NCBI GenBank assembly: GCA_016432325.1
Contig: CP066684.1
Location: forward strand, 704,001 to 768,000
Direction: 5' to 3'
DNA length: 64,000 bases
From: Candidatus Aenigmatarchaeota archaeon
GTDB lineage: Archaea; Aenigmatarchaeota; Aenigmatarchaeia; PWEA01; JACQIF01
Shown here: in pieces, positions 16,512 to 29,391 of the stretch
Position numbering within the stretch: position 1 is the stretch's first letter
Layout: each line of letters opens with the position of its first letter
The notes under the pieces: model-generated
Databases searched by the model: none
Told to the model about the DNA's origin: nothing
The model's input: only the letters and a program-made list of their open reading frames with translations
Translations under genes and position numbers: made by a program

Positions 16512-17459
16512 TTACTTCCCGCCTAACTCTCTGGCCAGCTCCTTTATGAACCTTTCAAAGTTCTTCGCAGGCACCTGCGCGCCGCACGCGGCCGCGTGTC
16601 CTCCGGCAGAGCCGCCAAGAGGCTTCGCCACCTTGCGCGCCACGCGGGCCAAATCGTGAGCGAACCCCTTGTTCGCACGCAGGGACATGTCGACGTGTCC
16701 ACCTTCGAGTATTCCTATTACGCCTACCTTGGCGTCTGCTATTCCCATAATCAGGTGCGCGCCTTTGGCCAGCGAACCCATCTCGATTATCGCGTATGCG
16801 ACCTTTCCGACAACAGTGTGGTTCTGGACCAGACGCTCGTAGAGCAGCTTGTCGTGCCTGGCCTCTTTCAGAGCGAGTTCCACAACGTCTTTCATTTCAG
16901 ACGGCTCGACGCCTTTAACGAGTTCACGAACGATTCTCCGTTTCAGGTCGTACAGATGCCTCGCCTCTCCCATCGCCTCGAGAAGGATGCCCGCCTGGAA
17001 ATAGATTATCCTCTTATCCCACTTCTCGAGCTCTTTCGTTATCCAGTTCGTGTCGTCCGCGTAGTCGCCTATCGCCCCGTAGAGCGCTATTCTTGAGAAC
17101 TCCCTTGGAAGCTTTTCGTGCAGATACATGTACGCGAGCTCTGCCGTAGAGCGGTTGGTGTCGTGAACGTACTCGTCCGGAACGTCGCGATCGCGCGTTC
17201 CGTTGGGCAGCGGGTGGTGGTCTATGTAGAGAAGTTCGTATTTCGATGAGATGCGTTTCAGCTCCGCGAGAATCAGAGGCGCGTCCTCGTCGTGCAGCGC
17301 GATGTCCAGAATCACGGTGTGCTCCTTGGTCGCCTTCAGGTCCGACAGGAGTTGCGTAGGCCGGCTGAAGTGTACGCTCTCCGCATCGACGCCGAAGGCT
17401 TTGGCTACGAGAACGGCAGACGTAAGACCGTCTGTGTCGCCGTGCGCGAAGATCTTCAG
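16512..17459 (-). CDS. DHH/DHHA1 family phosphoesterase, 5' end interrupted by stacked inserts (probable CTG start)
   Basis: Frame extends upstream of the listed ORF to (L)KIFAHGDTDG; IDHH, GGSAGGHAAACG. Confidence 0.85.
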   Translation of the reverse strand: MKIFAHGDTDGLTSAVLVAKAFGVDAESVHFSRPTQLLSDLKATKEHTVILDIALHDEDAPLILAELKRISSKYELLYIDHHPLPNGTRDRDVPDEYVHDTNRSTAELAYMYLHEKLPREFSRIALYGAIGDYADDTNWITKELEKWDKRIIYFQAGILLEAMGEARHLYDLKRRIVRELVKGVEPSEMKDVVELALKEARHDKLLYERLVQNHTVVGKVAYAIIEMGSLAKGAHLIMGIADAKVGVIGILEGGHVDMSLRANKGFAHDLARVARKVAKPLGGSAGGHAAACGAQVPAKNFERFIKELARELGGK

Positions 17460-17624
17460 AACACATCGCCCCCAATCCGTTCTGAAGTATTCGAACGAGG
17501 TTCGAAGATTTTCACGCGCCCGCCTCCGCGCGGCGTGAAAACTTGAGACCGCGTTTCAAGATTTTCAGGACCTATCCCCTCCATCCGGTCCCGAAGTATT
17601 TGAATGAGGTTCGAAGATTTTCAT
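17448..17624 (-). repeat. three stacked twin-hairpin inserts duplicating the start region NTGAA(A/G)ATCTT
   Basis: Copies begin at 17624 (ATG), 17568 (CTG), 17515 (GTG), 17459 (CTG); periods 56/53/56; units 1 and 3 closely similar. Confidence 0.9.
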
Positions 17625-17657: not shown

Positions 17658-17863
17658 TGGTAGCCCCGGTAGGATATTCATGAAACGCGCGGCGTTTCAT
17701 ACTTTCGGCTTCTTCGAATCCGAAAGTCTTCGAACCTACGTCAACGGTTAGCTTCGTCTGCTCACAGTTCTTTCGAACTCGCATCTTTAGAGACAAACTC
17801 CAAAGACCGCTATCCTTTTGTGGAACCGCTGGAATTCCGGTTTGGCCACTAGACGACGGGGCT
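17658..17863 (-). tRNA. tRNA-Gln(TTG) with three introns (17818-17843 D-loop, 17750-17799 at 37/38, 17675-17728 at 59/60)
   Basis: Removing the three BHB-bounded segments gives a 76-nt cloverleaf AGCCCCG...CGGGGCT-A-CCA. Confidence 0.9.
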
Positions 17864-18248: not shown

Positions 18249-18310
18249 ATGAAAACATCGAAACTCGGTTTCGAATCTTCCAGAGGAAACAGGTGAATTT
18301 CGTGAAAATA
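18249..18310 (+). promoter_or_regulatory. hairpin leader/uORF duplicating the thrS start
   Basis: ATGAAAACA ... GTGAAAATA, period 53, TCGAAAC-TCG-GTTTCGA hairpin, SD AGGTGA. Confidence 0.7.
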
Positions 18311-27699: not shown

Positions 27700-28997
27700 A
27701 GGTCGGCCTGGAGATTCACGTCTATCCGCGCACGAGTGCCAAGATGTTCTGTATGTGTTTCGTGCGCGCTGAAGACGCCAATACGTCCGTATGCCCGCGG
27801 TGCACGGGCCAGCCGGGAGCGAAACCGATGGCCCCGAACAGAACGGCAGTGGAGAAAGCCGTTGTTCTTGCCAAGGCGCTTGGTTGCAAGTTGGAAGTGC
27901 GCGCGACTGTTCTGCGCAAGCACTACTTCTATCCGGATCTGCCGTCGAACTACCAGAGAACGTCGACGCCCATCGGCCGCGAAGGTTCGTTCCTGGGCGT
28001 GCGCATACGTGAAGTGCACGTTGAGGAGGACGCCGCGCGTTACGAACCGCGGGACGGGACCGTGGACTACAACCGAGCGGGCGTACCCTTGATAGAAGTA
28101 GTTACAGAACCGGACATCAACAGCACAGACGCGGCAAAGAACTTCGTCGACGAGTTCTCGCGCCTGCTGCACTATCTCAAGATTGCGGATCCCTCGTCCG
28201 CGATAAAGGCCGATACGAACGTGTCTGTCGGCGACACGCGCGTGGAGGTCAAGAACATCAACACAACGCATGGAATCCTGGCCGCGATTGAACACGAGGC
28301 CAAAAGACAGACCGAGCTTCTCGAGCGCGGAGGCACGCTCGTGCAAGAGACGCGCCACTGGGATGAAACGAAAGGCCGCACACTCGCGTCGCGGGAAAAG
28401 GAAACGGAATCAGACTACAGATATATGGAAGACCCGGACCTGCAGCCGATTGACATTTCGTCCGTACGCGTCGCAACGCCGGAGGACACGTTCGCCGCGC
28501 GCAAACGTTTGGAACGTGCGGGCGTGGCGCGCGACGCGGCTGTCGCCGTAACAGAGGAACAGGAGTTCGTGGCGCTGTTCGACTCGTTGTCCAAGAGGTT
28601 CGAGCCACAGCGCGTCGCCGAGTGGATAAGACGCGACCTGCGCGGCGAGCTCAACCACCGCACGCTGACGCTGGAACAGAGCGGCGTGAAAACGAAAGAC
28701 GTCGAAAGGCTCATGGACGACGCGTTGTCCGAGAAGATTACGCGGCACAAGGCGAAACAGCTGTTGCGTGAGCTTCTGGACAAGAAGGAGAGCAAGCACA
28801 CAACGAAAGCATCGAAGGAGGACGTCGAGAAGGCCGTCGAGGCGACACTGCTGGCACACCAAGATGTCGTACAGAGGTACCGCGAAGGCAAGAAAGAGGC
28901 CTTCAACTTCCTGCTCGGCGAAACCAATCGCGCGCTCGGCTTCGCCGCGGACCCGAAGGAGATCGCGAAGGTTCTGAAAGAGAAGCTTAATATGTGA
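27696..28997 (+). CDS. gatB: Asp/Glu-tRNA amidotransferase subunit B
   Basis: VGLEIH, RKHYFYPDLP, DYNRAGVPLIEVVTEPD, RVEVKNIN, KE..DYRY. Confidence 0.95.
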   Translation: MKVGLEIHVYPRTSAKMFCMCFVRAEDANTSVCPRCTGQPGAKPMAPNRTAVEKAVVLAKALGCKLEVRATVLRKHYFYPDLPSNYQRTSTPIGREGSFLGVRIREVHVEEDAARYEPRDGTVDYNRAGVPLIEVVTEPDINSTDAAKNFVDEFSRLLHYLKIADPSSAIKADTNVSVGDTRVEVKNINTTHGILAAIEHEAKRQTELLERGGTLVQETRHWDETKGRTLASREKETESDYRYMEDPDLQPIDISSVRVATPEDTFAARKRLERAGVARDAAVAVTEEQEFVALFDSLSKRFEPQRVAEWIRRDLRGELNHRTLTLEQSGVKTKDVERLMDDALSEKITRHKAKQLLRELLDKKESKHTTKASKEDVEKAVEATLLAHQDVVQRYREGKKEAFNFLLGETNRALGFAADPKEIAKVLKEKLNM

Positions 28998-29022
28998 GCG
29001 CGCTCCAGTAAGGCAGGGAACT

Positions 29023-29391
29023 ATTAAGATCTTCATCGTCGACATAGACGGCACCATCTGCGAGCACGTTTCGAACGAGGCCGGCGCACAAAAGATGCTC
29101 GACGCCGCGCCGTTTCCTGAATCTATCGCTTCGGTGAACAGGTGGTACGACGAAGGTCACATCATATGCTTCTTCACGGCACGTACGGACGAGCACGCAT
29201 CCGCGACAGAGGCGTGGCTCAAGAAACACGGAGTGAAGTACCACAAGGTAATCTATAACAAGCCGCGCAAGATTGCTCCGTACACCGAGTACCACTTCAT
29301 AGACGACACGCCTGTGCGCGCGACGCGCTTCACGGGTAAGATGGGAGCGTTCGTCAGAAAAGCGAAGGAGATAGAAGTCTTCGAGGAGTAG
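29023..29391 (+). CDS. small HAD-superfamily phosphatase, probable ATT start
   Basis: KIFIVDIDGTICE lies in frame upstream of the first ATG; FTAR, WLKKHG, KP, IDD. Confidence 0.8.
   Translation: MKIFIVDIDGTICEHVSNEAGAQKMLDAAPFPESIASVNRWYDEGHIICFFTARTDEHASATEAWLKKHGVKYHKVIYNKPRKIAPYTEYHFIDDTPVRATRFTGKMGAFVRKAKEIEVFEE

Follow-up and report, generated by a model that had tools for sequence, protein, structure and literature searches.

The start of a DHH/DHHA1 (RecJ-like/NrnA-like) gene in an aenigmatarchaeal genome is interrupted by three short hairpin-forming inserts, and the sole codon by which ordinary translation can enter the DHH frame upstream of its first catalytic motif is a CUG at position 17459 that overlaps the stop codon of a small open reading frame (ORF). 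The window analysed here is a stretch of 64,000 nucleotides, bases 704,001-768,000 of a single-contig genome of 874,869 bp with 56% G+C. Coordinates refer to this window unless given as genome positions, and all sequence of the DHH locus is given in the minus-strand reading. We are highly confident about the nature of the inserts, which we describe as hairpin mini-inserts that duplicate gene starts. As for the expression of the gene, our best reading is that a mini-ORF with a GUG start, led by a Shine-Dalgarno (SD) sequence, hands ribosomes to the overlapping CUG and that the DHH body is made at a low level; we offer it as a proposal whose chances we rate slightly below even.

The features of the locus are as follows.

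17653-17645, minus strand: TATA-like box TTTATTTAT, read from the sequence, its centre about 25 nt before ATG 17624
17624-17613, minus strand: R1, the original start ATGAAAATCTTC (MKIF), which now opens mini-ORF 1
17624-17565, minus strand: mini-ORF 1, 19 codons plus TGA
17624-17569, minus strand: U1, an A-type unit of 56 nt, with a hairpin, GGAGGGGAT (17582-17574) in its loop and CUGA in its 3' arm
17568-17516, minus strand: U2, a B-type unit of 53 nt, with two hairpins, the SD sequence GGAGG at 17527-17523 and GUGA at its end
CUG 17568 to TGA 17514-17512, minus strand: mini-ORF 2, a would-be ORF through U2
17515-17460, minus strand: U3, an A'-type unit of 56 nt, with a strong hairpin whose loop region holds GGGGGCGAT (17473-17465) and whose 3' arm holds CUG/UGA
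17515-17456, minus strand: mini-ORF 3, 19 codons from the canonical GUG 17515
17568, 17515 and 17459, minus strand: start copies R2 CTGAAAATCTTG, R3 GTGAAAATCTTC and R4 CTGAAGATCTTC
17459-17456, minus strand: CUGA overlap, where the UGA stop of mini-ORF 3 overlaps the CUG
17459-16512, minus strand: DHH/DHHA1 coding body, 315 codons from the CUG

Between the original start and DHH motif I lie 165 nt of inserted sequence, and R4 is followed directly by GCG CAC GGC GAC ACA GAC GG, which encodes AHGDTDG. The 3' end of each unit consists of one base and a new copy of TGAAAATCTT(C/G), giving CTG, GTG and CTG in turn. Since every period (56, 53 and 56 nt) equals 2 mod 3, the reading frames opened by ATG 17624, CTG 17568 and GTG 17515 stay open until a TGA that overlaps the next NTG (17567-65, 17514-12 and 17458-56, read as CTGA, GTGA and CTGA). 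The stop-to-stop frame of the DHH gene spans 16512-17555, and its first ATG, GTG or TTG is GTG 17315, downstream of motif I. An earlier note, made from the letters of the window, had described the three inserts with their periods and overlaps, the TATA-like box and a catalytic frame with CTG 17459 as its sole entry before motif I, and all of this holds base for base. About 25 nt between TATA box and start is the spacing expected of a leaderless archaeal mRNA, and it fits a predicted DHH transcript that is leaderless from ATG 17624.

The same note had spoken of tandem copies. These are real in the sense that a separate Logan assembly (L030, SRR12113384) is 100% identical across 3,415 bp including the array, but the units are not three copies of one another. 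U1 and U3 align without gaps, with 12 mismatches in their 44 interior positions (27%), while U2 is unrelated to both in sequence, so the array is best described as an A-B-A' mix of two unit types. This is why Tandem Repeats Finder reported no array at the DHH start. The identity of the independent assembly and the divergence of U1 from U3 make a collapsed or duplicated assembly artefact unlikely. The start repeat is also far from a chance recurrence: within the 64 kb of the window TGAARATCTT is found five times, the array accounting for four, against 0.21 expected, and none of 100 shuffles reached five.

The orthologue comparison that the earlier note had pointed to finds relatives with none or one unit at the same site. 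The three nearest proteins (P0002, P0003 and P0004, with 80, 74 and 74% identity) all start MKIFAHGDTDG, which bears out the suggestion that the ancestral start ATG AAA ATC TTC was once fused to AHGDTDG. The 80% relative (L029) has a matching tRNA-Gln 3' end and a TATA box, TTATATCT, about 24 nt before its first ATG, and reads ATGAAGATCTTC, a 42-nt insert, and ATGAAAATCTTC-GCC CAC GGC. This is one B-type unit with a period of 54 and an ATG restart; its insert is identical to U2 in 45 of 66 columns with one 1-nt indel, and its first stem differs by one compensatory swap from C-G to G-C. A 74% relative (L031) reads ATGAAAATCTTG, a 44-nt insert, and ATGAAAATCTTC-GCA CAC GGC, that is, one A-type unit with a period of 56, an ATGA overlap and an ATG restart, which aligns without gaps with U1 and U3. 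Both single-unit relatives carry an SD-like run. No duplicated start was seen in a 70% relative (L032) or a 49% relative (G003).

Because these orthologues start MKIFAHGDTDG and have no unit, or one homologous unit with an ATG restart, at the site, the comparison identifies the units as insertions and not as a decayed leader. Their number differs by lineage (0, 1, 1 and 3), and the simplest connection between these states would be gain and loss of units through recombination between the 11-12-nt repeats. In the relatives the unit ends in A, so that an ATG is formed anew; both A-type units here end in C, which leaves a CUG beside the gene. Closer relatives were not found among metagenome contigs (39%-identity matches only), among genome contigs or in a DNA search of 40 relatives, and the DHH query had no match in a genome of the same genus that is 73% complete (G001).

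The units can be assigned to a genome-wide family of start-duplicating, mobile-element-like hairpin mini-inserts. Hairpin modules of the forms TTCGAAC..GTTCGAA and TTGAAAC..GTTTCAA occur at about 90 loci in the genome, including duplicated gene starts and tRNA introns, and a frequent layout at gene starts is a copy of the start, the hairpin, an SD-like run, and then the start with its gene. A strict screen of the genome gave 25 candidates, many of them noise, and about nine were judged to be clean start-duplicating units; the screen certainly undercounts the family. Four of the roughly nine combine a period of 56 with an NTGA overlap. Three looser direct-repeat screens of the genome were too noisy and were dropped. 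The repeat at the DHH start, GAAAATCTTC, is similar to the modules' 5' arm (TCGAAAACTTCGAACC in the tRNA introns, GAAAATCTTGAAAC at two other loci), and this likeness may explain why the same gene start was hit repeatedly.

Further members of the family are found close by and elsewhere. At thrS, 600 nt away on the opposite strand, a leader unit with a period of 53 lies at 18249-18310 (plus strand) and consists of ATGAAAACA, a GAAAC/GTTTC hairpin, an AGGTGA SD sequence and, 53 nt further on, GTGAAAATA. One kilobase thus contains the hairpin family in three settings, namely tRNA introns, the leader of a gene and the DHH array. The start of an exosome-subunit-like gene (MITKIDKEF..., genome 122265-122335, plus strand) has a B-type-like unit with a period of 56 and an ATGA overlap. 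This unit duplicates ATGATAAC(C/G)AAAATC, again with GAAAATC, and the recurrence of GAAAATC hints that the element prefers particular targets or regions of homology. In a ribosomal-protein-L5-like gene (genome 69949-70000, plus strand) there is an apparent in-frame 48-nt double TTCGAA hairpin insert near the N-terminus, before ...VRVEKVTLNIGVG, which may be a translated insertion.

The gene behind the array is intact. From CUG 17459 its 315 codons run without stop or frameshift, the HGDTDG (DxD), IDHHP (DHH) and GGH motifs are all present, and the Pfam matches are PF01368 with 32.9 bits and PF02272 with 42 bits. The public gene call (P0001) has 267 amino acids from GTG 17315 and therefore comes without the DHH domain and the catalytic motif. 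The ratio of nonsynonymous to synonymous substitution rates (dN/dS) against three relatives is 0.06-0.11. To two outgroups, dN is 0.215 and 0.237 for this genome and 0.201 and 0.210 for the 80% relative, so that the gene's own branch is slightly longer. Taken together, these values indicate strong purifying selection.

The divergence of U1 and U3 can be read as a clock. The two units share the terminal C, and their Jukes-Cantor distance of 0.34 corresponds to 0.17 per copy. In simulations of neutral drift that take U3 to be a duplicate of U1 and start at that duplication, 1.7% of ORFs stayed free of stops; with the drift set at 0.10 substitutions per site the figure was 8%. This result speaks for selection having continued, and so for some expression, under the assumption that the units diverged in place after the CUG junction had formed.

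The SD-like runs that the earlier note had pointed out in the three units are real matches, since the 16S rRNA 3' end of the same genome, which reads ...GGATCACCTCCT and served as our anti-SD reference, complements them. GGAGGGGAT (17582-74) and GGGGGCGAT (17473-65) each stand 9 nt before the next NTG, and GGAGG (17527-23) stands 7 nt before it. The folds of the units differ in significance. U3 forms the most significant structure of the array (dG -24.8 kcal/mol, z -3.9, none of 200 shuffles equally stable), a stem of 10 bp with the CUG/UGA within its 3' arm and the SD-like run within its loop. U2 folds with dG -22.7 and z -1.7, and in both U2 and U3 a stable stem has the restart codon and the stop in its 3' arm.

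From these observations we would reconstruct the following course of events. Three hairpin mini-inserts, one B-type unit between two of the A type, have landed as a tandem array in the first four codons of the DHH gene, each bringing a hairpin, an SD-like run, and a 3' base with a fresh copy of TGAAAATCTTC. Because each unit adds such a base and a fresh start copy, the old leaderless AUG now opens a short dead-end ORF. Ribosomes would initiate at the SD-led GUG 17515, some of them perhaps handed down from the leaderless AUG, and by translating the 19 codons of mini-ORF 3 they would open the hairpin in which the restart site is buried. They would terminate at UGA 17458-17456, exactly on the CUG, and restart at the overlapping near-cognate CUG 17459, aided by the SD-like GGGGGCGAT upstream. 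The product would begin (M/L)KIFAHGDTDGLTSAVLVAK. We infer both the restart and the level of expression; output should be low because a CUG is only a near-cognate start. The earlier note had proposed a serial relay of termination and reinitiation through all three units. Its last step, the hand-over from UGA to CUG, is the part that our proposal retains as obligatory; the complete three-step relay is not needed, as U2 supplies GGAGG and a canonical GUG, and a relay from the leaderless AUG by way of the CUG codons of U1 and U2 may at most add ribosomes. A stronger version of the proposal would see the array as a working translational device and not as damage, its NUGA overlaps passing ribosomes from the AUG, the GUG or both to the CUG restart. 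This we find harder to accept, and we would sooner doubt it than rely on it.

Several observations weigh against a CUG restart. CUG is not known as an accepted start codon in archaea. All of the roughly nine clean units restart at ATG, GTG or TTG except the DHH unit, and the DHH locus is the one case found in which the working start copy has been deprived of a canonical codon; since the other clean units restart canonically, it resembles a damaged outlier and not a design. The U1 fold is no better than its shuffles (z = +0.4), and the conservation of the hairpins could serve the element instead of the host. Pairwise dS is saturated, so a recent loss of function would be invisible, and independent insertions or gene conversion would void the argument from the U1/U3 clock. 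The genome furthermore holds three other DHHA1-domain genes (four in all), two of them small and DHH-like and one a 924-amino-acid open frame that we take to be alanyl-tRNA synthetase, and for this reason loss of the DHH gene is perhaps tolerated.

The main rival is accordingly a silenced gene, in which an A-type unit ending in C destroyed the start and the DHH ORF is either a young pseudogene or silent and not yet decayed. We consider this unlikely, yet the most serious of the alternatives. It would account for the CUG as the sole non-canonical restart among the clean units and for gene callers finding no start, the two small DHH/DHHA1 paralogues suit it, and the saturated dS would hide a recent relaxation of selection. 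It sits poorly with an ORF that is intact with all its motifs in a streamlined genome of 0.87 Mb and with a dN that is barely raised on the gene's own branch. The divergence of U1 and U3 also points to a long stay at the locus, and over such a time a neutral ORF would almost certainly have picked up stops (P ~0.017-0.08 for escaping them). A rescue at the level of DNA is very improbable in our view. Recombination among the four 11-12-nt R copies would here excise units precisely and restore ATGAARATCTTC-GCG in part of a polyploid population, and the array would act as an expression dial in the manner of a variable number tandem repeat (VNTR). The series of 0, 1, 1 and 3 units, with different unit types kept in different lineages, is what gain and loss between R copies predicts, and loci of mycobacterial interspersed repetitive units (MIRUs) are classic VNTRs. 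Two independent assemblies, however, contain the three-unit form only, a 315-amino-acid protein of near 100% identity is not in a collection of 5.8 billion proteins, R3 and R4 differ, and the repeats are merely 11-12 nt long.

Removal of the inserts from the mRNA, which the earlier note had considered as the other way to express the gene, can be judged against a neighbouring gene with clean splicing motifs. A tRNA-Gln(UUG) gene with three bulge-helix-bulge (BHB) introns ends 34 nt upstream of the DHH start, and its introns carry the same hairpin modules as the array.

17863-17658, minus strand: tRNA-Gln(UUG) with three BHB introns, from a hand parse and a BHB scan
17843-17818, minus strand: D-loop intron, 26 nt, H=4, h'=5
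17799-17750, minus strand: intron 37/38, 50 nt, H=4, h=7, h'=6
17728-17675, minus strand: intron 59/60, 54 nt, H=4, h=5

Our BHB scan is geometric and looks for a 4-bp central helix, 3-nt bulges and flanking helices. As a positive control it recovers all three tRNA-Gln introns, with H=4 and flanks of 5-7 bp. Applied to all junction pairs that restore ATGAARATCTTC-GCG in the array, it finds nothing better than a central helix with three of its four pairs formed, two as G-U wobbles, and a flank on one side that does not exceed 4 bp; unconstrained matches were rejected, because they would either remove motif I or put the gene out of frame. The DHH inserts therefore lack the structure by which BHB introns are defined and are not supported as such introns, and because the neighbouring control scores while the DHH junctions fail, splicing by the tRNA endonuclease is likewise unsupported. 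That the tRNA-splicing endonuclease and RtcB excise the units, singly or as one 165-nt block, in the way that they take out the cbf5 intron of Crenarchaeota, seems to us highly improbable. Excision of the 165 nt (55 codons) would be in frame and would give MKIFAHGDTDG, the N-terminus of P0002-P0004, which is also what any target-duplicating insertion would lead one to expect. The modules do occur in tRNA introns that need splicing, and the genome is rich in introns (only eight tRNAs pass the Rfam threshold genome-wide, and the 16S gene measures 2,178 nt). The one-unit relatives, in contrast, carry an SD sequence and an ATG restart and so appear built for translation and not for excision.

The least probable explanation, and a barely conceivable one, is recoding, either by a hop between identical AAA-AUC-UUC codons in consecutive R copies or by a -1 slip on the GGGGG of mini-ORF 3. 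A hop would give MKIFAHGD, and a slip an N-terminal extension MKIFEPRSNTSERI.... Matching take-off and landing codons do lie 53-56 nt apart with a hairpin between them, and upstream of the CUG the DHH frame has no stop for 32 codons and, at U UGG GGG C, stands at -1 to mini-ORF 3. Such openness arises by chance in about 20% of cases or more, and the run of G does not conform to the canonical X XXY YYZ pattern. The putative take-off UUC is followed by neither a stop nor a rare codon, three hops or a single one of 165 nt would be needed, and the other members of the family need no recoding at all.

Mycobacterial MIRUs are the closest published analogue of the array, which would work like a MIRU; the likeness is one of function and not of sequence family. 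According to the account of Supply et al. (1997) given in PMC12548453, MIRUs are short units that insert at start codons and contain an internal ORF with a -4 overlap with the host gene. As described there, they measure about 50-80 bp, are often in tandem and variable in number, and lie at the start codon with a small ORF overlapping the next start by 4 nt, which keeps translation of the host gene coupled. At the DHH locus we find units of 56, 53 and 56 nt, within the 40-100 bp expected of such inserts, a variable copy number, a duplicated start (four NTGAARATCTT) and the 4-nt overlap. Unlike MIRUs, the DHH array lies in an archaeon behind a leaderless first start, interleaves two unrelated unit types, ends in a CUG restart instead of ATG or GTG, and is made up of hairpin modules of which tRNA introns in this genome also consist.

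Work in Haloferax and E. coli has demonstrated termination-reinitiation at 4-nt overlaps, to which the SD sequence contributes to a varying degree (PMC6728339), and the process is described for gene pairs that overlap (ATGA/TGATG) in archaea as well as bacteria (Huber et al. 2019, PMC6728339; 2023, PMC10666635). The DHH locus resembles these pairs in its 4-nt overlap of stop and start, in the SD-like motif within the upstream ORF at 7-9 nt, and in a restart site buried in a structure that the upstream ribosome would open. It differs in that the upstream ORFs are mini-ORFs derived from inserts, with up to three serial hand-overs, and in that two of the three restart codons are CUG. A canonical restart codon (AUG, GUG or UUG) is found at the hand-over from U2 to U3 (GUGA), and not at that from U1 to U2 or at the decisive one from U3 to the DHH gene (CUGA).

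Archaeal BHB introns in protein-coding genes are exemplified by cbf5 of Crenarchaeota (PMC2738675). The DHH inserts share with them that a conserved gene is interrupted in frame, over a short length and close to its 5' end, in a host that splices BHB introns heavily. They differ in the missing BHB at the frame-restoring junctions, in the long direct repeats that flank each unit, and in the SD sequences and restart codons that they hold. A further parallel exists with translational bypass elements, such as T4 gene 60 and the mitochondrial byps of Magnusiomyces, which are likewise hairpin-forming; as in the mobile inserts of this kind, the DHH units are stretches of about 50 nt between identical codons within a coding sequence. 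No stop follows right after the take-off codon at the DHH array, in contrast to these elements, and hopping is not required.

To these systems the locus adds a mixed three-unit array, relatives that show it stepwise, splicing controls directly adjacent to it, and an intact and selected gene that can be entered only through a stop-overlapping CUG. It is thereby a good natural case for testing non-canonical reinitiation in an archaeon. Should the DHH protein be produced, archaeal post-termination ribosomes can restart at a near-cognate CUG, and the rules of gene calling would have to be widened for DPANN and other uncultivated lineages. If the array is a working device, mobile hairpin units could tune the output of a gene by their number and last base. 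The distribution of 0, 1, 1 and 3 units across lineages illustrates how selfish hairpin inserts persist in essential-looking genes by rebuilding start signals, a single base at the end of the unit deciding whether the host gene keeps a proper start. If the gene is dead, the locus would be a well-dated case of gene inactivation by a hairpin element. It will also be interesting to use the same modules, which carry BHB geometry as introns of tRNA-Gln and lack it in the mRNA, as a natural comparison for the origin of archaeal introns.

Some minor observations concern possible RNA genes at the locus. ARAGORN found no tRNA in the window and Rfam one, both missing tRNA-Gln, and in the array region Rfam gave only a chance microRNA match. 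Since no more than the eight tRNAs mentioned above pass Rfam genome-wide, most tRNA genes must be heavily interrupted. The plus strand at U3 and U1 (17498-17513 and 17600-17622) mirrors the junction of T-arm and intron in tRNA-Gln (17722-17744), with AGGTTCGAAGATTTTC against AGGTTCGAAGACTTTC matching at 15 of 16 positions. A hidden plus-strand tRNA or pseudo-tRNA at the array was rejected for want of a closing T-stem or acceptor, and the antisense likeness probably reflects the shared palindromic modules and not a hidden gene. A C/D-box small RNA, with the unit running from a C box to CUGA, was also rejected, as the candidate C boxes ATGAAAA and GTGAAAA have no second GA.

A second gene of the window has an unusual start. 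In a small HAD-like gene at 28978-29391 (plus strand), the catalytic DIDGT motif lies upstream of any ATG, GTG or TTG. An ATT at 29023 stands in the position typical for the start of the family (I-KIFIVDIDGT), 25 nt past the upstream gene's stop codon, and the first codons, AAGATCTTC, show the same palindrome as the DHH repeat. This is possibly a second non-canonical start in the genome; no relatives of the gene were found in 25 genomes.

The remaining content of the window is archaeal and DPANN-like, with an archaeal type IV pilin carrying a LamG-like domain, MscL, and a threonyl-tRNA synthetase with the archaea-specific editing domain, and the closest named homologue of the DHH gene comes from 'Candidatus Aenigmatarchaeota'. 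Outside the window, the 16S rRNA gene lies at genome 637095-639272. With its 2,178 nt against a model of 1,478 positions, it probably carries one or more insertions or introns.

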